A stretch of DNA of 52,805 bases, the filler included, from Theionarchaea archaeon (GTDB taxonomy: Archaea > Methanobacteriota_B > Thermococci > Methanofastidiosales > SZ-28-30): assembly GCA_018992565.1 (NCBI GenBank). It is 3 parts of 3 records of this genome, joined end to end, with 100 filler letters (N's around TTAATTAATTAA, not from the genome) between each part and the next. Parts side by side here need not be neighbours in the genome. Positions count along the whole stretch, not along the records: positions 18,279 to 35,580 come from JACVGW010000058.1; 2 more parts are not named here. One strand, given 5' to 3'. Numbering within the stretch: position 1 is the stretch's first letter; each line of letters starts with the position of its first letter. Below, piece after piece: positions 18,363 through 35,680 of this stretch. Both the position numbers and the translations under genes were made by a program. The notes under the pieces were generated by a model. The model saw only the letters and a program-made list of their open reading frames with translations, had not been told where the DNA came from and ran no database searches.

Positions 18363-18375
18363 GTAATAGATGTAA

Positions 18376-18744: not shown

Positions 18745-18852
18745 GTGTGATTTGTGATCTGGAAAATAACCAAGACTCGTGCAGTATCTTTATAGCCATG
18801 ACTGAGTATGACCAAGACAGAGAATCTATAAAGACATTCGAGAGGTAAGATA

Positions 18853-19731
18853 ATGAATCCTGTAGTTAGAAAGCTCTACTCAGAAGAGGAATTGCAGAAG
18901 AAAATTATAGAATACACGCGAAACCATGATGGTTTCAAGGCTAGGGAATTCTACCAAGGAATTATCAGTGTTACATACACTCTGGCTTTAGTTTATGAGA
19001 TCTTGGGGGATGAAAGAAGCAGCAGGTGTCTTCTGGAGAGAGCGATAGATGAATGGAACACAGATCCACGTCATCATGTTCATTCAATATACTTGAATGC
19101 CTTAAGAAAACTTGGTAGACCGGAAAAAGCTCTAGAAGAGGTTCTCAAGAATCCACGTGGATGGGGTATTGAGACTCTGGCCATTAATTACAGAATGATG
19201 GGAAGGAAGAATGAGGCGATGCTACTTTATTCAGGATTAGCTGTGCATAATTTTGAGCTTTCTGAGGCCTATGCCTCATTTTGGCGACCTCACTATCTCC
19301 AGAAAGCTTCCAACCTGTGGGAGAAAGCAGAATGCGAAGAATGGGCAAACTCATATAATATGAGAGCACTGCAGGCATGGAGTGAAGTCAAAGACACTAT
19401 AGATAGAAAGCTCCGTACCATAGAAGAAGCCTGGCTTCATGAAGAAGTTGCATACATCTATGAGAGGGCTCAGAGACTTGATGAAGCACTTCGCTACTAC
19501 AGGAAAGCCCAGGCAGAATATGAGACTGCCCACAAGAAAGAACCCGTATCTGTTCAAGCGAACTACTGTGATGGGGATGGGGATCGTTACTATGATTTCT
19601 TTTCGTGGCAGATACCGGACTTGCCCTATATCCACTTATTTCATGATTGCTACGAGGAGAATGATTTGAGAAGGATGAGATACCGCATTCTGAATCTAGA
19701 ACAAAAAACGAAATCGCGAATCTCAATTTGA
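18853..19731 (+). CDS. all-helical TPR-like hypothetical protein, paralog 1
   Basis: 292 aa, GAGGT RBS, collinear with 19853-20722. Confidence 0.8.
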   Translation: MNPVVRKLYSEEELQKKIIEYTRNHDGFKAREFYQGIISVTYTLALVYEILGDERSSRCLLERAIDEWNTDPRHHVHSIYLNALRKLGRPEKALEEVLKNPRGWGIETLAINYRMMGRKNEAMLLYSGLAVHNFELSEAYASFWRPHYLQKASNLWEKAECEEWANSYNMRALQAWSEVKDTIDRKLRTIEEAWLHEEVAYIYERAQRLDEALRYYRKAQAEYETAHKKEPVSVQANYCDGDGDRYYDFFSWQIPDLPYIHLFHDCYEENDLRRMRYRILNLEQKTKSRISI

Positions 19732-19852
19732 TTTAGATTTCAATGCTGTTTGTCCAGGCTCCACAAGGAATCATGGACTTGACGAAGTACTTATATCAAA
19801 AGGAGATGTCAATAGAAAAAGCAAAAGGCAGCAGCCTGAGTGAAGTGAAAAG

Positions 19853-20722
19853 ATGAATCCATTAATGAGAAAACTCTACACAGAAGAGGAAATACGGGAA
19901 AAAATCGAGAAATACAAGAAGGAGCATGAGGACTTCAAAGCTGGAGAATACCACGTATTGATGATAAGTTCCACGTATGCTCTAGCTCTGCTATTTGAGA
20001 TTCTGCAGAATAATGAGTGCAGCAAATACTACTTAGAAAAGGTAATAGAAGAATGGAATTTACATCCAGGCAAGCATTTTCATTGGGCGTACTTGAATGC
20101 TCTGGAAAAGCTTGGTAAAGCTGAAAGAGCTCTTGAAGAGATTCTCAGTACTCCTAGAAGTTTTGGCATTGAGACCCTGGCCTATTTTTATCGAGAAGCG
20201 GGTAAAAAGAATGAGTCTATTCTGCTCTTTTCAGGGCTGGCGGTGCACGCCTTTGAGCTTTCTGAAACTCGCTCCTCATTTTGGCGACCTCACTATCTCC
20301 AGAAAGCTTCCAACCTGTGGGAGAGAGCGGAATGCAAAGAATTGGCAGACTCATATAACATGAGAGCATTGCAGACATGGAACGAGGTTAGAGACAGCCT
20401 AGACAGAAAGCTCTGCCTCATAGAAGAGGCCTGGCTTCATGAAGAAGTTGCATACATCCATGAGAGAGCTCAGAGATTTGATGAAGCACTTCGCTACTAT
20501 GAGAAAGCTCAGGCTGAATATGAGACTGCTCACAAGAAAGAACCTACATCGGTCCAAGCGAATCACTGTGACGGTGATTGGAATCGTTACTATGGTTTCT
20601 TTTCGTTACAGATACCTGACCTATCTTATATAGACTTACCCCTGGATAGCTACGAGGAAAATGATTTGAGAAGGATGAGATACCGCTTTCTGACCTTAAA
20701 ACAGAAAGCAAGAGCCATTTAG
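19853..20722 (+). CDS. all-helical TPR-like hypothetical protein, paralog 2
   Basis: 289 aa, tandem duplicate offset exactly 1000 bp. Confidence 0.8.
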   Translation: MNPLMRKLYTEEEIREKIEKYKKEHEDFKAGEYHVLMISSTYALALLFEILQNNECSKYYLEKVIEEWNLHPGKHFHWAYLNALEKLGKAERALEEILSTPRSFGIETLAYFYREAGKKNESILLFSGLAVHAFELSETRSSFWRPHYLQKASNLWERAECKELADSYNMRALQTWNEVRDSLDRKLCLIEEAWLHEEVAYIHERAQRFDEALRYYEKAQAEYETAHKKEPTSVQANHCDGDWNRYYGFFSLQIPDLSYIDLPLDSYEENDLRRMRYRFLTLKQKARAI

Positions 20723-20895
20723 GGCACATCTTTCAGGTGTATAGGCACAGTGAGGAACACCAAGAAGGTGCGCTGGCTCGAAGGTCTCTACCCTTACCCA
20801 TTTTTCATATACCTCCCGAGATCTGACCTCTGGTCTTTACAATATCTATGAAATAAGTGGAATTGCACCCGAGGATAGAAAACGTGATGAGAAAT

Positions 20896-21414
20896 CTATT
20901 TCGTCTCGGGCACATAACCACTTTTTGTAATCTTCTCGTCAATCAAGAATAGGCAAAGAGCAAATCTAAATTCGTCAATAGACATGAGCTTTGATGCCCC
21001 TGAAGCTTCATATAGAGCCTGCTCAGTTGCGCTTCCCTTCATTCTCTCTAAAGCTGATGATTCGACTATCTCATCAAAGGCAGTAAGAAATGCTATTTGA
21101 TAGGGTGTTAGTCCCAAAACTATGCTATCACCAATATAATTGATATCTTTAGGTGTAAACCAAAGCTCCGGACCTGATACTCCTCTTTTCACGAAGATCT
21201 TCTTAACAGTGGTTAGGGTTTTGTCAAATGCCATGTTGCTTACGTGGCCTATCATGACTGAATCCCTTCCGTAGACTTTCTTTCAAATGAAATTATTAAG
21301 CTTAAGAATAAGGGGGGGTTTGTTTCTGGGCGGAATAGATATTTTCATCCCACATTTCCCGCAAAAGGCAGAGTCTGGATCAACTTCTGCTCCGCATCTC
21401 AGACAGTAAACCAT
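20896..21414 (-). pseudogene. zinc-ribbon plus PRC-barrel protein with in-frame TGA at 21283-21285
   Basis: MVYCLRCG...FCGKCG then NFI*KKVYGRDSVMIGHVSNM in the same frame as ORF 20896-21255. Confidence 0.7.
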
Positions 21415-21703
21415 TACATCACCGACTTACTATCCCAATCCAATCTATAAGAACCATTCACTCAAATATATATTCAGTTTTACAATAAAATGATCCGCCA
21501 AGCACAAGGCATAAAGAGATAATGTGATATTTCAATGTGAATACATCTCTGCACTGCAAGGGATGTGAGTGGAGTAACTTCTGCGGGAGTTAGCTGCAAG
21601 GTCAGTGCATTCCTGCACACGGGAAGTATTGAAGGGGGAGATCCACTGTGTGAAGCCTTTAAGAGCCTGTGCCACGATACGTTTAGAGGATCAAAACCAG
21701 CAA

Positions 21704-22381
21704 TCAGATATGCCAGTAAAGTGGATACTGCCCTAGAAGCACATTGTACTTTGGTTCCTTCTTATCCTCGTTTTCAGAGGGATATTTTGTTAGTGCTTCA
21801 TACAGAAGAGGTTCCAACTTTGTTTCAACATATTCTGCTTGTTTTTCAGTCAAGTAACCTTTCCATACACGCGGGATGAACCCCTTCATATTATTCAGTT
21901 TGATGTTGATTCTTGAATTTCTGGTAAGTGACAGAATTTTCATGTCTCCATCCCTAATCACCTCATGGCTGATCTCAGCAAGTGTTGCATAGAACTGATA
22001 TTCAAGGAGAACCAGGTGTAAGTATTTCTTCAGCATTGTAACGTCATTTGACTCAAAGATATCTTTAAAATCAACTCTTAACTGTAATCGGTCACATTCG
22101 GGCAGCGTATAGATCTTTCTAAAGCGTCCCGTTGCTGGTACTGATACTGACAGAATTTCAGTTTCAACCATTTTTGTCAGATGGTATGATAGAGTGCTTC
22201 TCTGTATGCGAGTGAGCTCCATGAGTTCTTCAGTAGTTGCCTGGTTTTCTCTCAGGATGAAAAAATAGATTCTCGCTCTTTGAGGATCCTGAAGAACCTC
22301 CAGCTGTTCTATTACGGTGTCTACATCAATTGTCGTGACTTTGAGCTCTTTCTCAATCCTATCGTGTGGTTCTCCAGTCAT
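21704..22381 (-). CDS. winged-helix (ArsR-like) transcriptional regulator
   Basis: LQDPQRARIY, RSTLSYHLTKM; divergent from serine hydrolase. Confidence 0.8.
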   Translation of the reverse strand: MTGEPHDRIEKELKVTTIDVDTVIEQLEVLQDPQRARIYFFILRENQATTEELMELTRIQRSTLSYHLTKMVETEILSVSVPATGRFRKIYTLPECDRLQLRVDFKDIFESNDVTMLKKYLHLVLLEYQFYATLAEISHEVIRDGDMKILSLTRNSRINIKLNNMKGFIPRVWKGYLTEKQAEYVETKLEPLLYEALTKYPSENEDKKEPKYNVLLGQYPLYWHI

Positions 22382-22479
22382 ATTTAGTCATATGATCTTC
22401 ATTGCGATAGTTATAAAGTTTTCGATTACCATCGAAACATTTTTATGTAGATCGAATTATAGAATCTCAGGTGATACGA

Positions 22480-23928
22480 ATGGACCTGGAAAGAGCCAAA
22501 GAGCAGCACAACCTGATAACAAAGGAATTAGAAAACCTGGATTTTGGAAAAGTGTATTTACAATTCATGACCGAAATGCCAAAAAAAGGATGTACATGGT
22601 TACAGGAATTTATAAGAGAGCACAGGTACGAATCAGAGGACGAGGAAAAGAAAGAAACCCTTCTATTCCTCTATATTTTTAGGAAATTACTCGCTGGAGA
22701 ACAATTCTACTTTATCAATTCACGAAACATCTCAGAGAAATTAATAGAGGTGGATTTTTTTACCTCCAAGAGTAATGTAATCTTATTCTCAAAAATGAGC
22801 AGAAAATCAACAGAAAATATGGATGTAGACCTACTGAAGATTACTTTTCCCGGGTTTGAAGACATGTATCAGGATAATACTCTCTTATCATTAGAAGAAG
22901 CAGTAACCAAACTGAACAGAATCTTTGATGAACTTGAGGAGAAGAACATCTTTTCAGGGAGTGTTGGCATCACCAGGAATGATGAATTCATTTTCAGACG
23001 ATCATCGGGAGAGGCAGACATGAGATATCATGTTCCCAATAATGAAGATACCAAATTCAACCTGGGTTCAATGAACAAGATATTCACTGCTGTAGCGATT
23101 CTACAGCTCTATGAACAGAAGAAGCTCGATCTCCTCGACACGGTTGCAACATTTTTGCCGGAATTTCCACATGGAGACGAAATAACTATTCACCACCTGT
23201 TATCACACACCTCAGGATTGGGGTCTTTTTGGAATGAAAAGTTCGAACAGAGGTTCAAGAATATTCGGTCCATTGATGATTATATGGACTTATTCATTGA
23301 AGAAAGTCTTCTTTTTCAACCCGGAGAGCGCTTTGAATACAGCAACGCAGGATTTATTGTGTTGGGAAAAATAATTGAAGTAATCACAGGTACATCATAC
23401 GATGAATACGTCCAACAGCATATCTATGATGCTGCAGGAATGCAGAATACCTGCTGCTACGAAATAGACCGAATCGTTCCGAATCTGGCAATGGGGTACA
23501 CCCATGATCCCGATATTGACAGGGGTTACCTGGATCACTATGTTAGTAATTTCCTGATGATACCCGTGAAGGGCAGCTCTGCGGGGGGCGGATATTCGAC
23601 ACTTGATGACCTTGTATCATTTGCCAGAGCACTGAAAAAAGGAGATCTAATCTCTCGGCATTCACTGGACATGATGCAGGAGCCACCTCTCACAGAGGGA
23701 ATCGAACCCCGACAATCAGAGGGCTATGGCTATGGATGTCAAACAGGAAGTATAGGAAAGAATAGGTTTTATGGTCATGGCGGCGGTGCGCCCGGTGTAG
23801 CAACGATGCTGATGATCTTCCCGGATATTGATGTAGTTGTGGCACTCCTCAGTAACTGGGATCCCATGTATGAGATTTTTGCTGAACAACAGATTTTGAA
23901 CATCGTCACGAGAGTGAGCTTTTCTTAG
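22480..23928 (+). CDS. serine hydrolase, beta-lactamase/PBP-like family, with N-terminal extension
   Basis: FNLGSMNK (SxxK), LLSHTSG, FEYSN, HGGG. Confidence 0.92.
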   Translation: MDLERAKEQHNLITKELENLDFGKVYLQFMTEMPKKGCTWLQEFIREHRYESEDEEKKETLLFLYIFRKLLAGEQFYFINSRNISEKLIEVDFFTSKSNVILFSKMSRKSTENMDVDLLKITFPGFEDMYQDNTLLSLEEAVTKLNRIFDELEEKNIFSGSVGITRNDEFIFRRSSGEADMRYHVPNNEDTKFNLGSMNKIFTAVAILQLYEQKKLDLLDTVATFLPEFPHGDEITIHHLLSHTSGLGSFWNEKFEQRFKNIRSIDDYMDLFIEESLLFQPGERFEYSNAGFIVLGKIIEVITGTSYDEYVQQHIYDAAGMQNTCCYEIDRIVPNLAMGYTHDPDIDRGYLDHYVSNFLMIPVKGSSAGGGYSTLDDLVSFARALKKGDLISRHSLDMMQEPPLTEGIEPRQSEGYGYGCQTGSIGKNRFYGHGGGAPGVATMLMIFPDIDVVVALLSNWDPMYEIFAEQQILNIVTRVSFS

Positions 23929-24136
23929 AACCCTGTAAAACTAGTTTTTGTCTACTTCATTTCTCCAGGAGGACTCAGGGCCACTGATGGCTGTCAGGGT
24001 TGCAGTCAGTGAAGATGGCCAGGTCAGAGGAGAGGAGGATTTGATGAGGCAATGTGCATTGAAGTTGCTGGAGGGAATTGATTCTGCAGGAGAACTACTG
24101 GAAGGGGGAACAACTGATAAATTCAAATTAGACTGT

Positions 24137-25205
24137 TCAACCGAATTCATTCAGAAAGTCCTTGATAACCTTTGCATATTCCTGTGGATTGGAATATCCA
24201 GGAGTGTGTCCCGTGTTGTGAAATGTGTGAACCTGCGCGCGTGGATAGAGAGTTTTTAGGTTCTCTCGCACGGGGTTCTTAAATGCAGGGTCATCATCAG
24301 ATTCTATAATGAGGATTCTTCCAGGCCACATGACTGAACCATCTTGTGAGGGTGCGTAATTTGTCACAAAGTCAACTGTACATGCCTGTTGGGCTTTAAT
24401 ATCATCTTTCGTCATGCGAAGAGACACTTCTGTTAGGAAAGCTTTCCAGAACTGATGGTCTGAATCCGGTATTGATAAGAGGTTCATGAGTCTCTGTCTG
24501 AAAGAATTCCGTATCAGCTGCAGGGGGCACAAATCTGTTACAACCTGACCAAATCTCACGAGATTCTTGGAAATCCCTGAAGGTCCTGAAGTATGTGACA
24601 ATATGAGTGATTGGACTTTATCAGGGTAGTGGCGTACAAAACATTGAGCAACCCACCCTCCAAATGAAGTCCCAAGCAGGTGAACCTTCTTCGTGGATTC
24701 TGATGTCAGTATATGAAAAATCCCTTCTGTCATGTCTGCCATCGTGGGTAACGGTGGGTATGTGGGTGATATGATCGAATACTCATTTTCAAGGATCGTA
24801 ATAAGCCGGAACCAGGTTTCAGCAAAACGAATACCGCCAGGAAGCAGTACCAGGGGTTCCTCTCCTTTCCCACATGAGATATATTCCCAGGTGACATCCT
24901 CTCTATCAAGTGTTGTGTATGGANNNNNNNNNNNNNNNNNNNNNNNNNNNNNNNNNNNNNNNNNNNNNNNNNNNNNNNNNNNNNNNNNNNNNNNNNNNNN
25001 NNNNNNNNNNNNNNNNNNNNNNNAAACGAATACCGCCAGGAAGCAGTACCAGGGGTTCCTCTCCTTTCCCACATGAGATATATTCCCAGGTGACATCCTC
25101 TCTATCAAGTGTTGTGTATGGATGAGTTGAGCGAAATGTCTGTAATCGATCTTTCTGGTCTGAAGGAACATTCTCATAGATATCATTAAATGATTTCCTC
25201 GTCAT
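24137..25205 (-). CDS. alpha/beta hydrolase (one gene; gap plus 99-bp duplication is an artefact)
   Basis: GTSFGG nucleophile elbow, DD, TGH; ORFs 24906-25205 and 24137-25186 join after collapsing the duplicate. Confidence 0.85.
24825..25122. other. scaffold gap 24924-25023 flanked by identical 99-bp duplicate
   Basis: 24825-24923 = 25024-25122. Confidence 0.95.
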
Positions 25206-25375
25206 CGTATCCTCCTTGTCTCGTGATTTCCCGGATTAAACCATATCCAGCACGTTGTGTACTACTCTGTATCCTAGATGTACATTTATATAAATGTTTT
25301 CTATCACGTTCTATCCTGTGGCGATAGTTGTTCTCTGTTATTTCTCTGATTTCAATGCAAGAGCATAAAGGTCTC

Positions 25376-26152
25376 CTACGATCTCATGAGTATCACGAAA
25401 GGAGAATTCTCCACCGGGTGATTCTGTAGTATGGCTTCGACTCCAAATATCTCCCTCATATTTTCCACAGTCAGCACTTCTTCAGGATTCCCAAAAGCAA
25501 GAACACGTCCTTCTTTTAAGACTATTAACCTATCAGAATATAAGGATGCAAGGTTTAGATCATGGATAGCACAGATCACGATCAATCCCTCTTCTGTCAA
25601 CCGTTTCACGAGATCGAATATCTCGATCTGATGGCGAATATCAAGGTTAGCTGTGGGTTCATCAAGTAACAAAACCTTTGGAGATTGGGCTAATGCCCGG
25701 GCAATAATAACCCTCTGTCTTTCTCCTCCTGAGAGATTCGTTATCACCCTATTTCTCAAATGAAAGGTATCAGTAGCCTCCATCGCCTTTCGTGCAATCT
25801 CAATATCCTCTTTCCCCTCAGAGTGGAACAGGGTTAAATGAGGGTTCCTGCCCATTATCACAATATCAGCTACAGTGAAGGAGAAGGTCATGGGAGAGTC
25901 CTGTGGTATCACTGCAAGAACTCGAGCCACTTCTTTCAACTTCATGGACTCAATCTCCACATCTCCCAGATAGACAGTACCACATGTTGGGTTCAATATC
26001 TTGCTCATGACATGAAGCAGAGTTGATTTTCCCGAACCGTTAGGTCCAATGAGTCCTATGAATTCCCCTTCTCTCGCAGTAAAATTGATATCCTGCAGCA
26101 CATCGCCCAGGTTATACCCTGCACAAATGTGCTGTACTTCAACCTTTTGCAA
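25376..26152 (-). CDS. btuD: corrinoid ABC transporter ATP-binding subunit
   Basis: GPNGSGKST, LSGGERQR, LLDEPT, HDLNLA; probable TTG start after GAGGTG; cobamide context. Confidence 0.85.
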   Translation of the reverse strand: MQKVEVQHICAGYNLGDVLQDINFTAREGEFIGLIGPNGSGKSTLLHVMSKILNPTCGTVYLGDVEIESMKLKEVARVLAVIPQDSPMTFSFTVADIVIMGRNPHLTLFHSEGKEDIEIARKAMEATDTFHLRNRVITNLSGGERQRVIIARALAQSPKVLLLDEPTANLDIRHQIEIFDLVKRLTEEGLIVICAIHDLNLASLYSDRLIVLKEGRVLAFGNPEEVLTVENMREIFGVEAILQNHPVENSPFVILMRS

Positions 26153-27140
26153 ACATATCACCTCGCTTTCTTCTCAGTAAATAAATGAAGAATGGAGCCC
26201 CAAAAAATGCAGTCACCACTCCCACCGGCAATTCAGAAGGTGAAATTATCGTCCGTGCCACATTATCAGCCCATATCATGAAAATCCCCCCAAAGATAGC
26301 AGAGCTGGGTAGTAAAACCCTGTGGTCCGGACCCACGATGATTCTCACCATGTGGGGGACAACGAGCCCGACAAACCCAATGATACCACTCACAGACACT
26401 GCTGCACCAGTCATCAGTGACGTCACTACCACCAGGATTTTCTTGACAGCATCCACCTCCACCCCCAGATGTTGCGCAGTTTCTTCTCCCAGGAGGATGG
26501 CATTCAAGTCCCGTGAAAAGAGAAGAGATACCATAATGCCACAACCTGTAAAGGGCAGCAGCAGAAAGACATATGTCCAGCTTGCAGTCCCGAATCCCCC
26601 CATTAGCCAGAAATACAGACTGTGAAGCCATTTTTCCGAGATATAAATCAGAAAAGAGAGAACTGCAGACAGAAACGTAGACATGGCAATTCCCGATAGC
26701 AGGAGGGTCTCAACCGACATGGTACCATTCGTCCGTGCGATAGTATACACAGCAAAAATGGTGGTTGTTGAAAAGAAAAAAGCAAGGAGAGGAACAAAAT
26801 ATATGGATGCAAAGGCAAGGCCAGACACGATGGCAACTGCTGCTCCCACTCCTGCTCCCGAAGACACTCCCAGAATGAAGGGATCTGCCATGGGATTTCT
26901 GAAAAGTCCCTGCATGATGCAGCCGGAAGTAGCAAGGCATCCCCCCACCATCATGGCCAATAAGACTCTGGGGAGCCGTATCTTGAGAATGATGGCTTCC
27001 TGAGCTGCATTATGGTAGTGGGTATCGAATAATACTCTCATAATCGTTATGACATTGATTCGTACTGATCCAAGAGCAATAGACACAAGTGCAGTTATGA
27101 GAAGAATTAAGAGGAGAGAAGGAAGTCTGAATCCCTTCAT
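26139..27140 (-). CDS. btuC: corrinoid ABC transporter permease (FecCD/BtuC)
   Basis: IRLPRV, QGLFRNPMADPFILGVSSGA, IGFVGLVVPH. Confidence 0.88.
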   Translation of the reverse strand: MKGFRLPSLLLILLITALVSIALGSVRINVITIMRVLFDTHYHNAAQEAIILKIRLPRVLLAMMVGGCLATSGCIMQGLFRNPMADPFILGVSSGAGVGAAVAIVSGLAFASIYFVPLLAFFFSTTTIFAVYTIARTNGTMSVETLLLSGIAMSTFLSAVLSFLIYISEKWLHSLYFWLMGGFGTASWTYVFLLLPFTGCGIMVSLLFSRDLNAILLGEETAQHLGVEVDAVKKILVVVTSLMTGAAVSVSGIIGFVGLVVPHMVRIIVGPDHRVLLPSSAIFGGIFMIWADNVARTIISPSELPVGVVTAFFGAPFFIYLLRRKRGDMFAKG

Positions 27141-27168
27141 TCAGAACACCTTCTTCTGAGAAAGCCTT

Positions 27169-28104
27169 TCATGCACATGCCCACATGGGAAGGAACACCT
27201 CACTGGACTCATAGACTGCGTTGTTAATGAACTCTGCGAGAATCTCTAACCCCTCAACAATTCGCGGACCTGGTCTCAGCACCAAATCACCGTCAATGAC
27301 ATAGATCGCATTGTTCTTCACTGCAGCAATTGTGTCCCATCCGGGTCTGCTCACCACCTCTTCAATACCAACTCCTCCCATCCCCGATACAAGGATGATG
27401 AGAACAGGATTCTCAGCGATAATTGTTTCACTGGATATATTTGGATATGATGTGTCAGCATCTGCTGCAATATTGCGGCCTCCTGCCAGGAAAATCAGGT
27501 CGTCAACAAAACTGCCAGGCCCGAAAGAACCGTACCCGCTGGTGGATACCCATCCTTCAACATAAAGTGTCAGGGGTTCAGAGGGTGCATTCTCTTTCAC
27601 AGCTTCTATCCGTGCTTCACAATCAGCTCTCAAATCCTGTGCAGCCTCTTCTTCACCCACTGCCACCCCAATCAATGTAATATTGTTGAGGATATCATCC
27701 AGTGTTAAAGGATTGAGGATGATGACAGGAATTCCCAGTTCCTCGAGTCTCTCCGCGATCTCCTGGTGGTTACTGGTGGCAACCACAATGTCGGGGTTCA
27801 ACGAGATGACCTTTTCACTATTAACATCGCTGAATCCGCCCACTTTTTCTGTATGTACTGCATCCGGGGGATAGGTGCAGTAGTCTGTGGTTCCTACAAT
27901 TTTCTCACCCACACCGATTGCATACAAGATCTCAGTATTGGAGGGTGCAAGGGAGATAATTCTTTCAGGATGTTCTTCAATGAGTACCTCTTTTCCCGTG
28001 TCATCCACAATGGTTTTGGGGAATTCACCTTCAGGTTGAGGGCTTTCCTGACCCAGACAACCCAGGAGTATGAGGACCATGAAAATCGCTATACTTCTTT
28101 TCAT
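27169..28104 (-). CDS. btuF: cobalamin-binding lipoprotein
   Basis: LLGCLG lipobox, PERIISLAPSNTEIL, YCTYP, RPGPRIVEG. Confidence 0.85.
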   Translation of the reverse strand: MKRSIAIFMVLILLGCLGQESPQPEGEFPKTIVDDTGKEVLIEEHPERIISLAPSNTEILYAIGVGEKIVGTTDYCTYPPDAVHTEKVGGFSDVNSEKVISLNPDIVVATSNHQEIAERLEELGIPVIILNPLTLDDILNNITLIGVAVGEEEAAQDLRADCEARIEAVKENAPSEPLTLYVEGWVSTSGYGSFGPGSFVDDLIFLAGGRNIAADADTSYPNISSETIIAENPVLIILVSGMGGVGIEEVVSRPGWDTIAAVKNNAIYVIDGDLVLRPGPRIVEGLEILAEFINNAVYESSEVFLPMWACA

Positions 28105-28112
28105 TCTATCAC

Positions 28113-28133
28113 TTGGATGGTCTATCCATCCAA
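28113..28133 (-). promoter_or_regulatory. palindromic operator TTGGATGG-TCTAT-CCATCCAA between TATA and btuF start
   Basis: GGAAAGGTTTATAT BRE-TATA on the minus strand immediately upstream; motif repeated at 33984 and 34209. Confidence 0.8.
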
Positions 28134-28214
28134 CCACATATAAACCTTTCCATTGATCAAAATTCAGGTAGCTGGTCTCTCATTCTTAAGAGAAAGGAGT
28201 TATTGTCATGCCCT

Positions 28215-28805
28215 TCAGACAGATTCTGTGAGATATTCCTGTAAAGTATCGATATCATCTATGGTATTGACATTGAGAGCGACTTCAATTCTATTGAGGA
28301 TCATCACTTCTTCCTCCTGTGCATTGTCAGGATTTTCCATGATCATTGCACCCGAGACTATATTGATCCCTGAAGGGGATAACAGCTCTTTCTTGAAAAT
28401 TCCATGCTTTTCACAAAAGTCTTTTGTTGTATACACAGCGAGGGCAGGGGAGTTTGATGTTTCATATGTAGTAACGACGTCATTCAGAATTTCTGGTGTG
28501 ATCAGGGGCACATCGGAGGACAGAACAAGAACGGGTTCAGAAATGTTCTTCTCACGAATGACTTCTCTCATGTCTTCAATGTATCCTCTCCCAGCTGTAA
28601 CCATCTTTTGAACAGCTTCTGATTCTATGAATTTCCCTGTTTCCGGTGTATTTTCTGAGACTGCAACAATAATCTCTCCTATGCTGGCCTTTTTGACAGA
28701 ATCAATGACTTTCTTTATCATTGGAGTCCCTCCTACAGAAAGGAGAGGTTTTTCTCCCATGGTAAGTCTCTCTCCTTTTCCACCAGCCATTATGAGCACC
28801 TTCAT
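28215..28805 (-). CDS. cobY: adenosylcobinamide-phosphate guanylyltransferase
   Basis: MAGGKGERL, EKPLL, GYIED, SDVP, GINI, NVNT. Confidence 0.85.
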   Translation of the reverse strand: MKVLIMAGGKGERLTMGEKPLLSVGGTPMIKKVIDSVKKASIGEIIVAVSENTPETGKFIESEAVQKMVTAGRGYIEDMREVIREKNISEPVLVLSSDVPLITPEILNDVVTTYETSNSPALAVYTTKDFCEKHGIFKKELLSPSGINIVSGAMIMENPDNAQEEEVMILNRIEVALNVNTIDDIDTLQEYLTESV

Positions 28806-29527
28806 CTCATCACCACAATAAGAAGTATCATGGACATCATTCGCGTCGTATCGTGGGCTGCTCCTATGAAGTCTCCACCGATTCCACCCAGGTTCCTTTC
28901 TGCACCGACTGCGAGGAGATATGCAAAGACTAATGTTGATACGAATAGTAATGCCCCAACCTCCAGGAAAACCGACAATACTATCCCGGAAATCAGGCAG
29001 CTTTTCAAAAACAACTTCCTGTCAGTAGCCTGGATAACCCGGCTTCCCATTCCCTCGTGACTTGGGGTCCCGAAAAATGCTATGCAGTTCATGGAGAATT
29101 TCGCAGACACTTCAGACCCTATCAATCCAACGAATAGTGAATTTAAGGCCATAAATTCCACAATACAGAACACAGTGGTCAACAAGACAAAAAACGCCAG
29201 GAAAAATCCTCCTATTCCTATGAAGTGGTCGTGCATTACGTCAATCTTCTTTTCTCTTGTCCCGGTGACCAGGAGTGCATCTCCCATATCCAGCAGCCCA
29301 TCAGTATGGTGCAACCCTGTGAGAACCATCAGAAATCCCAGGGTGAACACCCCGGCCAGTGTGTATGGGAATACCCTGTGAGCACACCATGAAAAGGCAA
29401 AACTTGCACATCCGACACATAACCCTATCAAAGGGAATACGTAGGATGCCTCTGCAGTTTCTTCCAGTGTTCCTCCTTTCACAGGAATCCGGGTGAGAAA
29501 TGCCAGTGCGTATCTCACTCTTTTCAT
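28802..29527 (-). CDS. cobS: cobalamin (5'-phosphate) synthase
   Basis: FLTRIP, TGLHHTDGLLDMGD, GGIGGDFIGA. Confidence 0.92.
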   Translation of the reverse strand: MKRVRYALAFLTRIPVKGGTLEETAEASYVFPLIGLCVGCASFAFSWCAHRVFPYTLAGVFTLGFLMVLTGLHHTDGLLDMGDALLVTGTREKKIDVMHDHFIGIGGFFLAFFVLLTTVFCIVEFMALNSLFVGLIGSEVSAKFSMNCIAFFGTPSHEGMGSRVIQATDRKLFLKSCLISGIVLSVFLEVGALLFVSTLVFAYLLAVGAERNLGGIGGDFIGAAHDTTRMMSMILLIVVMR

Positions 29528-30558
29528 GTTCCGGCCTCATGAAAAATCTTCGAAGAAATCCCGGCAAGTAACCCCCCCAGGATGTCATCAAGAAAAGGAC
29601 CAGCCCTCCCAATGATGCCCGGTTTAACCCGTTCAACTCTTAAGAATTCATACACTGCCAGGGTCCCTCCAATGTAATTTGCTAGTGCATTTCCCAGGAT
29701 TTCATCGGCCACTAAATGTATGGGATCTTTTTCAAACTCTTCTCCAGAAAGTGAAGGAATGAGACCTTTTCTGCCATCTTCTTCTAATCTCAGTGCTCCA
29801 AGAATGAGAGAGGACACATTTATATCCTTTAATATAGAAATCAGTTCATCTTCAAATGATCTTCTGAAATCCTCTCTGGAGAGAGTGTCATTTTCAAGGA
29901 ACATTTCCATCTCAGCATCCACTAAATCTTCAACAGAAATAGACCTCTCAGCAAGTCTCTTCATGATTTCTCTTCCCGGTTGAATTTTCTCGAATGACAT
30001 TAATGCTTCGAGAACACAGGGTTTCACAGAATCGAAGATAGTCCTCCCCAGTTCTGTAGCTCTCCCACAGTATTTCACTTCTTTTCCTTTTCCTGTGCAC
30101 GCAACAACTACTGAATCTGTCACTGTTCCCCACAGGCCTTCATAGATACTCTCTCTTACATCCAGATCATGGAATGCTGCAGCTTTGGCTTCACATGCAA
30201 CAAGGACAGCATTCACCATTCCCTGCAGGGTGATATCCCCATCTATGATGAGGATTGTATTCACTGTGTTAGCATATCCTGCAGTGACAATGCATAAGAC
30301 GTCACCCTCCTCACGTGTGCGGTACGTGTTCACATCCACTGCAGTCATCATACCAATGAAACGGGATAGTCCATGCAGCTGTGCAAAGGCTTTCAGGTCT
30401 GATTCGGGATTTCCATCGTACTCCCTGGGTACCTGGAGATTCAGGATGGTAGTGGTTGTAGCATACCCCCCGAAAGTGGCAGAACTCAATGAGGTAAGAT
30501 CTCTCTCAGACTCCACAAAAATACAGTCATCTTTCACATATACCTTCACACCTTCCAT
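29524..30558 (-). CDS. cbiS: bifunctional adenosylcobinamide amidohydrolase (CbiZ) / alpha-ribazole-phosphate phosphatase (CobZ)
   Basis: N-terminal GMMTAV, TVN, EAK, GTVTD (CbiZ); C-terminal DINV, DPIHLVADE, KPG, PFLDD (CobZ). Confidence 0.8.
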   Translation of the reverse strand: MEGVKVYVKDDCIFVESERDLTSLSSATFGGYATTTTILNLQVPREYDGNPESDLKAFAQLHGLSRFIGMMTAVDVNTYRTREEGDVLCIVTAGYANTVNTILIIDGDITLQGMVNAVLVACEAKAAAFHDLDVRESIYEGLWGTVTDSVVVACTGKGKEVKYCGRATELGRTIFDSVKPCVLEALMSFEKIQPGREIMKRLAERSISVEDLVDAEMEMFLENDTLSREDFRRSFEDELISILKDINVSSLILGALRLEEDGRKGLIPSLSGEEFEKDPIHLVADEILGNALANYIGGTLAVYEFLRVERVKPGIIGRAGPFLDDILGGLLAGISSKIFHEAGT

Positions 30559-31451
30559 AGTACCACCTCCACCAGGAAGAGGATAACCACAAGAATCAGT
30601 GTCGATCCCTTCATGACAGTCAAAGTATCTGCAATGTGATGTGGTTCAAGGGCCCGACCATGCCCCAGGGTGTAATACCCTCTCTTCTCGAAGGTAACAT
30701 GTAATACTCCTGCCATCATTGCCATGGTATTTCCTGCATTTGGACTTTCTGTCTTATTCCTGTCCCTTAAGAAGATCTTGAGACCATTTCTCCAATCACA
30801 TCCATGCAGTATCCCGGAGAGCAAAATAAGAGCTGCAGCTAACCGTGACGGAATGAAGTTGAGGACATCATCAAGTCTGGCAGAGACAGTTCCTATCCTC
30901 ATGGATTTGTAGCCTACCATTGAGTCCAGTGTGTTTATACTCCTGTACACTGCTGCACCATACACTCCCAGGACAGAATAGTAGAACAAGGGCGAGACAA
31001 TAGAATCAGTGATGGACTCTGCAACTGATTCACACGCTGCAGAGATGACTTCTTTTTCAGAAAGGTCACTGGTGTCCCTCGATACAATTTCTGACACGCT
31101 CTCTCTCCCTTTTTGGAGATCACCCGCCTCTAACGCTATTCTTACCTCAGAAGCAGCTTGATGTAAGAATCGTACAGAAAATGTGGTCTTCAACAGCACT
31201 GAGAGTGCGAGAATTCTCAAAATGAAAGGTAGGAGTGATGCGAGGTGAAGATAGCAATAGACGAACATCACAGTCACAGACACTGTCGAGAACACTATAA
31301 AGTATCCCCAGAGCATTTCATGATCTCTCGAATCAAAAAAAGATCTCTGGATTGAAGTGAGGGTTCCAATGTACCTGACAGGGTGGATGAACCCCGGTGG
31401 TTCCCCAAAAAGCACATCCACTGCCAGGGCGGTGAGAATGATTTCAATCAC
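30546..31451 (-). CDS. cbiB: adenosylcobinamide-phosphate synthase
   Basis: FGEPP, HPV, VSRD, ESVAES, YRSINTLDSMVGY, SPNAG. Confidence 0.92.
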   Translation of the reverse strand: MIEIILTALAVDVLFGEPPGFIHPVRYIGTLTSIQRSFFDSRDHEMLWGYFIVFSTVSVTVMFVYCYLHLASLLPFILRILALSVLLKTTFSVRFLHQAASEVRIALEAGDLQKGRESVSEIVSRDTSDLSEKEVISAACESVAESITDSIVSPLFYYSVLGVYGAAVYRSINTLDSMVGYKSMRIGTVSARLDDVLNFIPSRLAAALILLSGILHGCDWRNGLKIFLRDRNKTESPNAGNTMAMMAGVLHVTFEKRGYYTLGHGRALEPHHIADTLTVMKGSTLILVVILFLVEVVLWKV

Positions 31452-32928
31452 GTGTACCACCAAAAATAATCTGTTGAAGGGTGTCAAAATCCACGTGATC
31501 CAGAAACGCTGCTGCCAGTCTTTCAATACTCTCATCGCATGCATCTTCTGCAGATTTTGTGCTTTTCACCTTCTCTATCCCCTTTTTCATTTTCAAATAG
31601 GTTAAGAATGCATTTTTTATGTTGAGGTTGTCAAAAATCCCGTGAAGATAGGTTCCGTATGTATTATTATGGACTGATCCTTCTCCTCTGTCACCAACCA
31701 TGAAAAGGGGGCTGCACTTTGTGACAGTTGTGCCCATGTGTATCTCATATCCTTTGAGTGACTCCCCATGAATCTCAGAAAATACTGGTGTATCTACAAT
31801 AGTTGCTTCGACTCTTTTTACAGATTTTTCATATGATGCAAATGAGGTTTCTGCATCAAGAAGGGAGAGTCCTTCAACACTCCCATATCCACTTTCCAGG
31901 TGAGATTCGTCATTGATTCTGGTCCCCAGCATTTGGTATCCTCCACAAATCCCGAAAATGACAGCAGTGCTGGATAACTCTTTTATTCTATCCTCGAATC
32001 CTCTTTCCCTCAGCCACTGCAAGTCTTCAATAGTGTTCTTGGTCCCCGGGAGGATGACTGCATCAGGATCTCCCATCTCCTGAACAGTTTCCACAAATCT
32101 CACACCTTCCTCCTTCAGTGGTTCGAAATCAGTAAAATTAGAGATCCTGGGAAGGCGTATTACTGCAATATCTACTGTTTTTGGCTGGGAATTTTTAATT
32201 CCCAGTGAATCTTCCTCCGGGAGTGAATGATTCATGTACGGGAGAATTCCCAAGACAGGTACCCCGGTCAGTTCTTCTATTTTTGTGATGCCACTTTCCA
32301 GAAGTGACTCTTCCCCTCTGAATTTATTGATGATGAACCCCTTCACCCTTTTCTTGTGGTGTTCTTTCAAGAGCTGGTATGTTCCATACATGGAAGCAAA
32401 GACGCCTCCTCTCTCTATATCTGCAATGATGATAACAGGTGCATCTGCCATATCTGCTGTTTTCATATTGGCAATTTCGAGTTCGTACAGGTTGACTTCT
32501 GCAGGAGACCCTGCACCCTCAATGATAACGACATCAAAGTCATTGAGTAATACGTTGAGAGAATCTTGAACAGCAGCCACGCCATACGTCTTCAAAAAGG
32601 ATGAATAGTACTCATTCACTTCCATATCCCTGAAAGGAGTCCCCAGGAGAACAACCTGAGATGTTTTTTCTCCTTTGGGTTTTAAGAGTATGGGATTCAT
32701 CTCCTTTCTTACTTCGCAACGGGCAGCACATGCCTGAACTGCCTGTGATCGTGCCACTTCGTGGCCCCCTTGAGTGACGTACGAGTTTAATGACATGTTT
32801 TGAGCTTTGAAAGGAGCAACAGTGAACCCGTTATTGGAGAGAATTCTCAGAATAACTGCAGTTACCAGTGATTTTCCCGCGTGAGATGCTGTCCCCTGGA
32901 CCATGAGTACGTTATTTCGGTTCTTCAT
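31444..32928 (-). CDS. cbiP: cobyric acid synthase
   Basis: QGTASHAGKS, PFKAQNMS, EGAGSPAE, ISNFTDF, GICGGYQMLG, GYEIH, GTYLHG. Confidence 0.95.
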   Translation of the reverse strand: MKNRNNVLMVQGTASHAGKSLVTAVILRILSNNGFTVAPFKAQNMSLNSYVTQGGHEVARSQAVQACAARCEVRKEMNPILLKPKGEKTSQVVLLGTPFRDMEVNEYYSSFLKTYGVAAVQDSLNVLLNDFDVVIIEGAGSPAEVNLYELEIANMKTADMADAPVIIIADIERGGVFASMYGTYQLLKEHHKKRVKGFIINKFRGEESLLESGITKIEELTGVPVLGILPYMNHSLPEEDSLGIKNSQPKTVDIAVIRLPRISNFTDFEPLKEEGVRFVETVQEMGDPDAVILPGTKNTIEDLQWLRERGFEDRIKELSSTAVIFGICGGYQMLGTRINDESHLESGYGSVEGLSLLDAETSFASYEKSVKRVEATIVDTPVFSEIHGESLKGYEIHMGTTVTKCSPLFMVGDRGEGSVHNNTYGTYLHGIFDNLNIKNAFLTYLKMKKGIEKVKSTKSAEDACDESIERLAAAFLDHVDFDTLQQIIFGGTRD

Positions 32929-33985
32929 GAAGACGCCTCAACTCCTGTACAAGCATTTCATTGGGTTCGTGTGGTTTCACACACAGTCTCACGTAGGAGG
33001 AGTCCAACCCCCTGAAGTTTGAACAATCTCGTATTAACACTCCCCTCTCCAAAAGTAGCTTTTTCAGCCTATGGGACTGGATTTTTGTCTTCAAGAGAAA
33101 GAAGTTCGTATCTGAAGGATAGGGATCAAGATACGGGATCTTTGAGAGTTCTGAAAAGAGATACCGCTTCTCTCTTTCTAGAAATCTTCGTGTATCTTCA
33201 ATGAAGGATTCATTGCAGAGGGCCCTTCTCACTGCCTCCTGTGCGATGTAATTCACATTCCAGGGTGTGGCGACCTTTTCCATGTATGCAATGACATCTT
33301 TGCTGGAGAATCCATATCCACATCGCAATGCAGGTATAGCGTACAGTTTTGTTGCCGACTTTAAGACAAACAGATTTGGGGTTGATTCCTGGACGAGAGA
33401 TTTCCTGCAAGAAAAATCAATGAATGCTTCATCCAGAAAAACGATAGCATCTCTTTTCTCAGCTTCATCCACCACAGACATGATGTCCTCTGAATAGAAT
33501 CCTGTGGGATTATTGGGATTACACAGAAAGATGACCTTTGTCAGATCTCCTATTTTCTCTATGATCTCATGGGGATCAATGAGCAGGTTCTTCATCTCTA
33601 CAAATGTACACGTTCCCCCATGCAATTTCACCATCCTTTCGTATTCAGAAAACGTTGGAACAGGTATGAGTACTTCGTCTCCTTTCTTTAAGAAACACTG
33701 ACAGAATAAGCGTAACACTTCAAGAGAACCATTTCCAACAATGATATTCTCCACGGGAACTGAATGGGTACATGAGAGTTGTTCTTTCAATCTGGTACAA
33801 CCTGTATCAGGATAGTGACGTAATTGCACGGGATCAAGGGTTTTGATGAATTCCACTATCTCTGCAGGAGGTCCCAGAGGATTGACATTGGCACTGAAAT
33901 CGATGGCATCATAGTGAATGGCATCGTCACCATGAGAATACTCGGGCAAGGAAAGGATATCAGGATTGGGACAGAAGATATGCAT
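32912..33985 (-). CDS. cobD: L-threonine-O-3-phosphate decarboxylase
   Basis: HG...DFSANVNPLG, CNPNNPTG, DEAFIDF, SATK, IRDCSNF; operon context. Confidence 0.85.
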   Translation of the reverse strand: MHIFCPNPDILSLPEYSHGDDAIHYDAIDFSANVNPLGPPAEIVEFIKTLDPVQLRHYPDTGCTRLKEQLSCTHSVPVENIIVGNGSLEVLRLFCQCFLKKGDEVLIPVPTFSEYERMVKLHGGTCTFVEMKNLLIDPHEIIEKIGDLTKVIFLCNPNNPTGFYSEDIMSVVDEAEKRDAIVFLDEAFIDFSCRKSLVQESTPNLFVLKSATKLYAIPALRCGYGFSSKDVIAYMEKVATPWNVNYIAQEAVRRALCNESFIEDTRRFLEREKRYLFSELSKIPYLDPYPSDTNFFLLKTKIQSHRLKKLLLERGVLIRDCSNFRGLDSSYVRLCVKPHEPNEMLVQELRRLHEEPK

Positions 33986-34004
33986 GGATGGTCAATCCAT
34001 CCAT
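33984..34004 (-). promoter_or_regulatory. palindromic operator ATGGATGG-TCAAT-CCATCCAT overlapping cobD start
   Basis: Directly after TTTAAAA box (34007-34013, minus strand). Confidence 0.8.
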
Positions 34005-34208
34005 TCCTTTTAAAGGTTCTGTCAGAGGGGTTCAGGGACAGGAAATGAGATATGTTGAAGCGGGGTTGGGAATTCAAGGAGTCCCCGAATTTTCGAGACA
34101 TTTCAGAGGATAGGGACAGGAATTCTGGGTGAAGAGGCATCTGTTTTAAAGGTTCTTCCGGGGGAGATACTCCTGCGATTTCTCAGAAACCCACAATGTT
34201 TATATATA

Positions 34209-34231
34209 GATGGATGGATAAGCCATCCATC
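34209..34231 (+). promoter_or_regulatory. palindromic operator GATGGATGG-ATAAG-CCATCCATC after the cblT TATA box
   Basis: TTTATATATA immediately 5'; AGGTGA RBS and ATG 34243 follow. Confidence 0.8.
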
Positions 34232-34242
34232 AAGGTGATATC

Positions 34243-34722
34243 ATGGAATTTTCATCTTCAGCAAAAGTTGCACGTATTGGTGTATTCGTATCTCTGGCAC
34301 TTGTTGGTTCATTCATTAAGATTCCAAGCCCCATAGGGAGTCCAGCACTTGATTCAGCCCCGGGATATTTCTCCTCACTTGCTTTTGGAGCATTTGAAGG
34401 GAGTATGGTAGCAGTACTGGGGCACGTTGTGACAGGTCTCACTTCGGGGTTTCCCCTGGGATTGCTTCACGGATTGATTGCTGTGGGAATGGGTGGATGT
34501 GCTGTAGTATTCAGGTACGTATATGAGAGAGTGAACCTCACGGTTGCTGTACTTCTCGTTGTTATCATGAACGGAATTGTCCTCCCTGTTGTGGTGATTC
34601 CCGGGTTTGGCGTTCCTCTGTATGTCAGTATTGTCCCTTCGCTGGTAGTAGCATCAGTGGTGAACAGTGTACTGGCCGGGGGAATATACGTCAAAGTGAA
34701 AGAGAGGATTGTATCCCGGTGA
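34243..34722 (+). CDS. cblT: ECF S-component, alpha-ribazole transporter CblT-like
   Basis: IKIPSPIGSPALDSAPG, GH, GFPLG motifs; adjacent to a cblS-like gene. Confidence 0.75.
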   Translation: MEFSSSAKVARIGVFVSLALVGSFIKIPSPIGSPALDSAPGYFSSLAFGAFEGSMVAVLGHVVTGLTSGFPLGLLHGLIAVGMGGCAVVFRYVYERVNLTVAVLLVVIMNGIVLPVVVIPGFGVPLYVSIVPSLVVASVVNSVLAGGIYVKVKERIVSR

Positions 34723-34726
34723 TAGT

Positions 34727-35428
34727 GTGAAGATTTATCAAGAGAGGGATGTGACAGTAATTGAAGAGCGTGGGAGAACCATAGTAGTATCATGCGATTC
34801 TGCTGGAGCGATTGGTTCCAAAAAGCATGATATTTTACAGGTTGATCCGTATCTTGTAGGAAGGATCACTGCACGAGTTGCGCTCATGGAACTGGCAAGT
34901 GTAGGTGCAACTCCCCTGGTGATTGTTGATACCTTGTGTGTGGAAATGGATCCCACAGGTAAGAGAATTCTCGAGGGTATTAAAGAGGAAGCGAAGGAGA
35001 TAGCAGTCATTACTGGAAGTACTGAGGAAAACATGAAGACCTGTCAGACAGGTGTGGGAATCATGTGTATTGGAATGTGTGATTCTCTGAGAGTTGGTAA
35101 GGGTGAGCAGGGTGATCTTGTGGTTGCTGTAGGTATTCCACGGGTTGGGAGTGATGTGTTGGGAAGTGGTGAGGTTATAGCTGATTTGCAGGATGTTGAG
35201 ACTCTTCTCTCACTAGAGTATATTGGAGCTATTCTTCCTGTAGGTTCAAAAGGAATTAGAAAAGAAGCGGTGTGTCTGGGTCCTGTAGAATTTATTGACT
35301 CAGGCCTTGACCTGGATGGTTCATGTGGTCCCTCCACTGTTGTTCTGATTACAATTCCCAAAGAAAGGATGAGAGATCTGAAGAACGTCGTGAAAAAGCC
35401 GATAACTGCTGTGGCAGAATTGCTCTAG
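34727..35428 (+). CDS. cblS: alpha-ribazole kinase CblS-like (PurM/AIR-synthase fold)
   Basis: RD, SCDSAGAIGSKKHD, ARVALME, TGSTEEN, QTGVG, PVGSKGI, GPST. Confidence 0.75.
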   Translation: MKIYQERDVTVIEERGRTIVVSCDSAGAIGSKKHDILQVDPYLVGRITARVALMELASVGATPLVIVDTLCVEMDPTGKRILEGIKEEAKEIAVITGSTEENMKTCQTGVGIMCIGMCDSLRVGKGEQGDLVVAVGIPRVGSDVLGSGEVIADLQDVETLLSLEYIGAILPVGSKGIRKEAVCLGPVEFIDSGLDLDGSCGPSTVVLITIPKERMRDLKNVVKKPITAVAELL

Positions 35429-35459
35429 TATTCTACCGGAATGTGGGTTACTCCTGAGA

Positions 35460-35580
35460 GATTCATCAAACAGAAGAGCTAATGAAAGATTCGGCAGATG
35501 ACGAGAACTCTCCTTGGTCACCCGATGGGAAGAAGATTGCTTTTGAATCAGATCGAGACGGGAACAGAGACATCTATGTC
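35460..35580 (+). pseudogene. TolB-like PD40 beta-propeller repeat fragment at contig end
   Basis: MKDSADDENSPWSPDGKKIAFESDRDGNRDIYV from 35482; upstream DSSNRR is in another frame. Confidence 0.6.
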
Positions 35581-35680
35581 NNNNNNNNNNNNNNNNNNNN
35601 NNNNNNNNNNNNNNNNNNNNNNNNTTAATTAATTAANNNNNNNNNNNNNNNNNNNNNNNNNNNNNNNNNNNNNNNNNNNN
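35581..35680. other. artificial contig linker (N44-TTAATTAATTAA-N44)
   Basis: six-frame stop spacer. Confidence 0.98.

Follow-up and report, generated by a model that had tools for sequence, protein, structure and literature searches.

We analyzed a 52,805-base stretch of DNA (hereinafter the window) from an uncultured Theionarchaea archaeon (GenBank assembly GCA_018992565.1), in which an inverted repeat, TGGATGG-N5-CCATCCA, recurs in the promoters of genes for uptake and salvage of vitamin B12 and other corrinoids. The window joins the contigs C146, C150 and C151 of a single metagenome-assembled genome (MAG), with runs of N at positions 18179-18278 and 35581-35680; gene neighborhoods spanning these joins are not real, and all three copies of the repeat, numbered below as operators 1 to 3, lie on C150 (window positions 18279-35580). 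The source genome, G000 of genus g1, comprises 2,803,216 bases.

The genes behind the three sites (Table 1), whose names were checked against NCBIfam and Pfam with several matches remaining below the equivalog cut-offs, belong to three groups. The first codes for a btuFCD-like importer, of which the BtuC-like permease (NF007081, e-value 7e-100), the corrinoid ABC ATPase (NF007082, 4.9e-85) and the BtuF-type binding protein (TIGR04281, 1.7e-52; NF002894, 1.1e-28) all match below the equivalog cut-offs. The second is a six-gene salvage operon with family matches for CobQ (5.2e-177), CbiB (5.9e-92), CbiS (2.1e-65) and CobS (2.6e-43), along with matches below cut-off for CobD (TIGR01140, 3.4e-80; HisC-like) and CobY (NF045495, 5.5e-36). 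The third encodes an ECF transporter S component (PF12822, 1.2e-9) followed by an AIR-synthase-related protein (PF00586, 2.2e-11) with otherwise only weak matches of the ThiL/PurM type. An earlier note on this DNA, made from the sequence alone, had named the last pair cblTS, a putative assignment, as the family matches reach only as far as an ECF S component and an AIR-synthase-related protein.

A scan of the window recovered the motif without mismatch at the three positions that the earlier note had described as perfect palindromes, its wider coordinates merely adding complementary flanks. Those flanks vary from site to site and still pair (T..A, A..T and GA..TC for operators 1, 2 and 3), and the 5-nt spacers differ (TCTAT, TCAAT and ATAAG), both as the note had it. 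When up to 2 mismatches are allowed there are 5 matches in the window versus 0.33 expected, and 0 of 100 shuffled sequences reach 5; of the two additional matches, one is a shifted reading of operator 2 and the other a 2-mismatch copy at 3725-3743 within a 437-aa open reading frame (ORF). On the coding strand the layouts are TTTATAT-5 nt-operator 1-9 nt-ATG for the btuF-like gene, TTTAAAA-4 nt-operator 2 with the ATG over the operator's last base for cobD, and TTTATATA-4 nt-operator 3-13 nt-ATG for the ECF S component, such that each site begins 4-5 nt after a TATA-like box, the placement originally reported. Given the TATA-to-ATG spacing of about 30 nt at cobD, the mRNA of the salvage operon would be leaderless.

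Table 1. Operators, TATA-like boxes and genes in the window (positions count along the whole window)
Feature	Position	Strand	Remarks
Operator 1	28114-28132 (21-bp palindrome with flanks, 28113-28133)	.	TGGATGGTCTATCCATCCA; btuF-like promoter; kept in G001
TATA-like box TTTATAT, btuFCD-like operon	28138-28144	-	5 nt upstream of operator 1
Operator 2	33985-34003	.	TGGATGGTCAATCCATCCA; last base overlapped by the cobD start codon (33985-33983)
TATA-like box TTTAAAA, salvage operon	34008-34014	-	4 nt upstream of operator 2
Operator 3	34211-34229	.	TGGATGGATAAGCCATCCA; promoter of the ECF-S/AIRS-like pair; kept in G001
TATA-like box TTTATATA	34199-34206	+	4 nt upstream of operator 3
btuFCD-like operon	25376-28104	-	corrinoid ABC importer
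btuF-like	27169-28104	-	
btuC-like	26139-27140	-	
btuD-like	25376-26161	-	
Salvage operon	28215-33985	-	
cobD	32912-33985	-	
cbiP/cobQ	31444-32928	-	
cbiB	30546-31544	-	
cbiS	29524-30558	-	
cobS	28802-29527	-	
cobY	28215-28805	-	
ECF-S/AIRS-like pair	34243-35428	+	
ECF transporter S component	34243-34722	+	159 aa
AIR-synthase-related protein	34709-35428	+	239 aa

Copies in the genome and in related archaea

Across the whole source genome the motif occurs exactly four times at a spacing of 5, and exact copies with spacings of 3, 4, 6 or 7 number zero. Base composition predicts 0.0089 exact copies (Poisson P(>=4) = 2.6e-10), and both one-mismatch copies of this genome fall within long ORFs. The fourth exact copy (C79:15063-15081; layout TTTATAT-2-site-1-ATG) heads genes for a secreted 128-aa DUF4430 protein (PF14478, 5.5e-22) and an ECF S component, which we take to be a corrinoid-uptake pair. 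Rather than being scattered before unrelated genes, the outcome that the earlier note had named as counting against a B12 operator, all four copies head corrinoid uptake or salvage operons, with none at unrelated promoters; each starts 2-5 nt after a TATA-like box and ends -1 to 13 nt before the ATG. A search of the same genome for weaker sites (at most 4 mismatches, and only where both a TATA-like box and the start of an ORF were present) produced none that is credible beyond these four. The note's expectation of further sites before B12-independent isozymes was not borne out, as none was found there in the source genome.

To place the motif phylogenetically we scanned 133 genomes of the phylum, 34 from the window's own order (which includes genera g1-g8) and 99 from outside it, among them the sister family f5, using the reversed pattern as a control. 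The exact motif is found in 22 of the 34 genomes of the order versus 1 of the 99 others, and the control in 0 of 133, in keeping with the lineage-specific motif that had been proposed. The sole exact copy outside the order, TGGATGGTCAAACCATCCA, lies in one f5 genome (G112:C1:249095-249113). Conservation in orthologous promoters, likewise anticipated, is seen in that related genera keep sites at the same genes, and the half-sites are retained while the spacers change across g1, g2, g4, g5, g6 and g8. For instance, operator 2 is kept in G001 and recurs with 1 mismatch at cobD of G003 (genus g2), where it abuts the ATG as in the source genome; a 3-mismatch 'site' in G003 was rejected, as it lies within cobS. 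Allowing at most 1 mismatch adds the DUF4430 and ECF-S genes of g5, the 567-576-aa BtuF-like genes of g6 and g8, and a second site in g4, located in a divergent ECF-T/DUF4430 promoter. In the family f2 the only match across 5 genomes is a GC-rich copy with 1 mismatch located away from any TATA box, and no site was found at the f2 DUF4430 gene.

At this threshold of up to 1 mismatch the fetched loci contain 70 distinct sites. Of these, 38 have the TATA-site-ATG layout and precede genes for BtuF-like, CobD, CbiM, DUF4430, ECF-S and ECF-T proteins, as well as a 47-aa ORF in g4 and a 75-aa ORF in g6. A further 25, all from g4, are instead situated 8-10 nt upstream of a conserved TATA box, 9 at genes for corrinoid proteins and 16 at genes for fusions of UroD with a B12-binding domain. 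The other 7 are of different or chance-like character: five are 1-mismatch copies in ORF-like, GC-rich contexts, one lies in a gap between convergent genes in G009, and one precedes a 202-aa ORF in G022. Among 64 sites (six having been dropped) the flanking position -1 is A in 74% and the central spacer base is A or T in 96%, the spacer being otherwise free; the base frequencies of the core are a consequence of how the sites were selected, and only the flanks and spacer are informative. The resulting consensus is a-TGGATGG-(5 nt, central A/T)-CCATCCA-t.

The sister family f5, which appears to be Thermococcus/Pyrococcus-like judging from the match to PH0730 described below, has a shorter palindrome of 15 bp, TGGAY-N5-RTCCA, in its B12 promoters. 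This box was recognized by eye, and a crude exact-palindrome scan of the f5 B12 loci showed no shared motif. Upstream of btuC, between TATA box and ATG, it is exact in three of five genomes and one base off in the other two; in the region between the divergent cbiB and PgpA-like genes it is exact in three, one base off in one and absent from one. Nine genomes contain 5-13 copies each versus 0-5 for the reversed control. In G034, six boxes with an all-A/T spacer are found at genes for a 621-aa BtuF-like protein, cbiB, btuC, the mutase small subunit together with MeaB, the mutase large subunit, and an ADP-forming CoA ligase; those at the mutase and ligase genes precede the TATA box by about 27-30 nt (L170-L172, G034). 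The boxes of the form TGGAY-W5-RTCCA at the genes for methylmalonyl-CoA mutase, MeaB and CoA ligase look like the arm of a regulon that serves B12-dependent enzymes. With an AT at one end or the other of each spacer, all four sites of the source genome contain the 15-bp box within them; together with the f5 box, this suggests that the 19-bp operator is one lineage's version of a TGGA-type B12 box used throughout the class.

Proposed operator function and mode of action

These observations on placement, gene content and conservation suggest that the palindromes are very probably DNA operators through which a protein, a candidate corrinoid-responsive repressor, governs a vitamin B12 (corrinoid) regulon. 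Both the position of all four sites in the source genome and their conservation agree with the general class of TATA-proximal repressor operators, the interval between TATA box and start being the classic place at which archaeal repressors block the recruitment of RNA polymerase. A dimeric transcription factor would bind the site, which occupies the stretch from the TATA box to the transcription or translation start, and, once bound, would prevent either the recruitment of RNA polymerase or the action of TBP/TFB. When corrinoid is sufficient, both import (through the btuFCD-like, ECF-S and DUF4430 proteins) and cobinamide salvage would thereby be switched off. The terms repressor and corrinoid-sensing are drawn from the geometry of the sites and the content of the regulon, and we consider repression by the bound factor to be quite likely. 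As the genes under control serve acquisition, DNA binding is expected of the corrinoid-replete form, and on balance we favor the corrinoid-bound protein as the form that occupies the operator. In g4 the sites 8-10 nt upstream of the TATA box, directly ahead of the BRE/TATA region and where archaeal activators bind, suggest a dual repressor and activator, and there the factor probably also activates genes for corrinoid proteins and methyltransferases. A single corrinoid-loaded DNA-binding factor would explain both classes of sites.

Several other readings of the palindromes were weighed against this one. That they are chance matches or a dispersed repeat devoid of a regulatory role has in its favor only their low copy number, and is negligible in view of the Poisson probability given above, the failure of any of the 100 shuffles to reach the observed count, the empty reversed control and the confinement of all copies to B12 promoters. 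It is also highly improbable that they act as RNA hairpins in 5' leaders, be it as small RNA switches or as targets of an RNA-binding protein, even though, were they transcribed, they could fold into a 7-bp stem closed by a loop of 5 nt, and the stem is conserved in sequence. In the promoters of cobD and the DUF4430 gene the whole TATA-to-ATG gap of about 29-30 nt is taken up by the site, and the usual archaeal TATA-to-start spacing puts the start downstream of this gap; the palindrome would thus lie upstream of any plausible start and outside the mRNA. Moreover, the 25 upstream sites of g4 precede their own TATA boxes, and the arms are invariant in sequence beyond what mere pairing requires while the loop is free. 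No Rfam family, including the cobalamin riboswitch RF00174, reaches its gathering score anywhere in the window, which accords with the earlier note's remark that no such riboswitch was recognizable. The site at the cobalt-uptake operon cbiMNQO of g4 would fit a regulon responsive to cobalt, or to a general metal or cofactor state, in place of corrinoid. We hold this to be improbable, since all four targets in the source genome concern preformed corrinoids or lower-ligand salvage and none concerns cobalt, and since in g4 and f5 the regulon reaches corrinoid-dependent enzymes.

A winged-helix/DUF4443 candidate regulator

The earlier note had placed the regulator elsewhere in the genome, and indeed none is encoded next to the sites of the source genome, no gene of the window qualifying as such. 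It had further pointed to a transcription factor with a B12-binding or enzyme-derived sensor domain; none with the B12-binding domain turned up among the 22 PF02310 matches of this genome. The combination of a helix-turn-helix (HTH) domain with PF02310 typical of CarH/LitR was not encountered there, the short proteins being a 225-aa corrinoid protein and a 133-aa mutase small subunit in which no HTH is visible in the sequence, as judged by inspection and not by a domain scan. The candidate that emerged instead is a 189-aa protein encoded by a single-copy gene on the 3.2-kb contig C25, which combines a PH0730-like_N winged helix (PF22167, 1.6e-11; 44.6 bits versus a cut-off of 30.2) with a DUF4443 domain (PF14544, 9.6e-20; 70.9 bits versus a cut-off of 27), and on which the Pfam CggR_N model scores 4.8e-8. 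A search with the single protein recovered no relative in the genome contigs. A profile of 11 orthologues matched PDB 2p8t ('hypothetical protein PH0730') with an e-value of 4.2e-61. The AlphaFold model (predicted local distance difference test score, pLDDT, 92.7) likewise matches 2p8t in a Foldseek comparison (E 1.7e-11; template-modeling scores 0.70/0.72), and its winged helix superimposes on the N-terminal DNA-binding domain of CggR/SorC with a root-mean-square deviation of 0.9-1.0 over 61-63 columns at 30-31% identity (7oyk, 8r3g), the value for CggR bound to DNA being 1.0 over 63 columns.

Three kinds of genomic evidence point to this protein. At the level of genera, a motif at a B12 gene and a DUF4443 gene occur together in g1, g2, g4, g5, g6 and g8, and neither occurs in g3 or g7. 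In 11 of 13 g4 genomes a site is found on the same contig as the DUF4443 gene, at a distance of 0.9-6.1 kb, and this gene runs in the same direction as the DUF4430 uptake genes in three different arrangements. Finally, in both g8 genomes the promoter of the DUF4443 gene itself contains TGGAT-N5-ATCCA between the TATA box and the ATG. We therefore give an even chance to the proposal that this protein, the orthologue of PH0730, is the reader of the operator; that it senses corrinoid directly is more tentative. An equally tentative extension is that the DUF4443/PH0730 family is the missing archaeal B12 sensor, which would bind corrinoid through its DUF4443 domain, read TGGA-type palindromes, and, depending on whether the site follows or precedes the TATA box, repress genes for acquiring corrinoid and cobalt or activate those for corrinoid enzymes, namely the methyltransferases of g4 and the methylmalonyl-CoA mutase of f5. 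The regulator assignment and the dual-mode reading are the newest parts of this work and are unproven.

A number of points weigh against these proposals. The C-terminal domain of the candidate resembles the insertion domain of AspRS and is unlike known B12-binding folds. No site lies upstream of its gene in the source genome, contrary to what the earlier note had expected of the regulator. DUF4443 was not found in the motif-carrying genomes G001 and G002, from which the whole 2-kb segment of C25 is absent; this may be an assembly gap. The DUF4443 gene of g4 has its own TATA-like element behind a T-tract, which makes co-transcription with the uptake genes doubtful, and 7 metagenome loci encoding close homologues show no B12 gene or full site within the flanks covered. 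In f5 DUF4443 is present in 7 of 7 genomes, yet the 19-bp motif is found only in G112, and the gene stands beside a pyrF-like gene and not beside B12 genes. Not every B12 transporter gene has a site, as the BtuF-like genes of G015 and G023 are devoid of one. There are also limits in the data: the source assembly is a MAG of 88% completeness; related genomes are not independent, the single genus g4 amounting to one or two observations and G001 differing hardly at all from the source organism; the TATA-like boxes were assigned by eye or by regular expression from the archaeal promoter consensus, and the start sites are predicted.

These points bear on a further alternative, namely that the sites are B12-regulon operators read by another protein, TrmB-like, ArsR-like or of an unrecognized type, to which DUF4443 would be a bystander. 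We regard it as somewhat unlikely. TrmB-family proteins of 250-290 aa are encoded in all genera, an ArsR-type gene of G034 with an HTH homologue in the source genome is divergent from the box-bearing CoA-ligase gene, and DUF4443 is unlinked to B12 genes in f1-like loci as well as in f5 and was not found in G001 and G002. However, TrmB-like and ArsR-like proteins are also present in the motif-free f2; an HTH gene at 21707-22381, the sole one close to the cluster in the window, is restricted to G000 and G001 (2 of 41 genomes at strong e-values); and neither the linkage nor the box in its own promoter that mark DUF4443 was seen for any of these proteins. As a candidate reader TrmB does not discriminate, given that PF01978 is found in 41 of 41 genomes, motif-free f2 included, and thus does not follow the distribution of the motif. 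The ArsR-like 225-aa product of 21707-22381 was rejected, with strong matches only in G000 and G001, three more at E ~1e-4, and no site upstream. As a separate observation, this ArsR/MsvR-like gene is divergent from a gene for a 485-aa protein with a beta-lactamase fold (window 21707-23925).

Known B12 regulation and other genes at the sites

To our knowledge, cobalamin riboswitches are a bacterial device, and B12 sensing in archaea, which make, salvage and depend on this cofactor, has been open since a signal prediction in 2003. In that year Rodionov, Vitreschak, Mironov and Gelfand reportedly predicted (J Biol Chem) a 'CBL-box' to which a hypothetical regulator of B12 genes would bind in some archaea, and are said to have assigned no regulator to it. 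The CBL-box reportedly embodies the same concept, a conserved DNA signal instead of a riboswitch at archaeal B12 transport and biosynthesis genes, and the 19-bp operator shares this location upstream of such genes; the likeness drawn here is one of concept only. The 19-bp form differs in being confined to an order of uncultured archaea without genomes in 2003. Pyrococcus genomes did exist in 2003, hence our guess that the 15-bp box of f5 may be the CBL-box signal. The literature searched, which did not extend to supplements and subscription journals, contains no description of the 19-bp operator or of a DUF4443 function, and mentions neither 'CBL-box' nor DUF4443.

The gene content of the regulon is the same as that of the bacterial RF00174 riboswitch regulons (btuFCD, ECF and DUF4430 uptake, cobinamide salvage and cobalt transport), and the logic, off at corrinoid sufficiency, is presumably shared; the device is an RNA leader in the one case and a DNA operator at the promoter in the other. 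In its architecture the operator resembles the TGM motif (TATCAC-N5-GTGATA) of the Thermococcales, which is read by TrmBL1/Tgr and represses from downstream of the TATA box and activates from upstream. The two share an inverted repeat with a 5-nt spacer and a position-dependent effect, but the half-sites differ, TrmBL1/Tgr sense sugars, and the TrmB genes do not match the distribution of the present motif. The candidate regulator is itself a member of the family of Pyrococcus horikoshii PH0730 (2p8t; PF22167 and PF14544), which has no function on record; its winged helix is like that of CggR/SorC (7oyk, 8r3g), and the effector domains, sugar-phosphate-binding SorC versus DUF4443, are unrelated. 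That an archaeal factor is able to control cobalamin genes directly is shown by the sugar-sensing TrmB of Halobacterium salinarum, which binds cob promoters (PMC2710871) and was the only such factor to emerge from the literature searched. In the literature searched, PH0730 appears in a single paper, only as a family name in a table of Pyrococcus furiosus transcription factors (PMC6316755).

The finding thus consists of a sharply defined operator and a coherent regulon that takes in uptake, salvage, cobalt transport and B12-dependent enzymes, along with a concrete candidate regulator for which a structure has been solved (2p8t). Should f5 be Thermococcus-like, the candidate would have orthologues in genetically tractable organisms, Thermococcus kodakarensis being amenable to genetic manipulation; and should the assignment be true, the DUF4443 family would do with a protein, throughout the class, what the B12 riboswitch does with RNA. 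The operator also helps to annotate the genes that bear it, such as those for DUF4430 proteins, a 986-aa surface protein and the 47-aa and 75-aa ORFs.

The 47-aa ORF of g4 contains two CxxC pairs (L025:3338-3481, L028:3021-3164, L037:2856-2999) and begins a single nucleotide past an exact operator, itself placed directly behind a TATA box (5 distinct sites); it has no family match and no homologue in the source genome. The 75-aa ORF, likewise without a family, is directly downstream of the only exact site in two g6 genomes (L030:2758-2985, L031:2763-2990). Also in g4, a secreted protein of 970-990 aa without a Pfam match is encoded between the operator-controlled DUF4430/S-layer-like gene and the DUF4443 gene (L143:3531-6491 in G005; L145:3384-6302), and may be a surface protein for corrinoid capture. 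The 1-mismatch site in the gap of G009 (L054:3001-3019) has TATA-like boxes on both sides and lies between convergent ORFs of 399 and 510 aa; in one direction it is followed by no ORF of at least 40 aa and in the other only by a poorly placed 81-aa frame, and it may drive a small ORF or RNA.

Around the fourth site of the source genome, a gene of the LarA family (nickel-pincer racemases) lies immediately upstream of the operator (G000:C79:15135-16373; L001:6136-7374), its best NCBIfam match being the malate racemase LarAH6, below cut-off. A protein of 145-150 aa without a Pfam, NCBIfam or PDB match (minus-strand G000:C79:16370-16807, L001:7371-7808; L027:2475-2927) is encoded 1.3 kb from this site in g1 and directly upstream of the site at the UroD/B12-binding fusion gene in g4; as a candidate regulator it was set aside, being found in 40 of 41 genomes of the class, motif-free ones included. 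Lastly, a corrinoid-protein gene and a small Toprim-domain gene form a pair in the source genome (L042, G000:C102), where the pair has no site, and again in g4 (L040, L041, L057), where an operator lies between the two genes.

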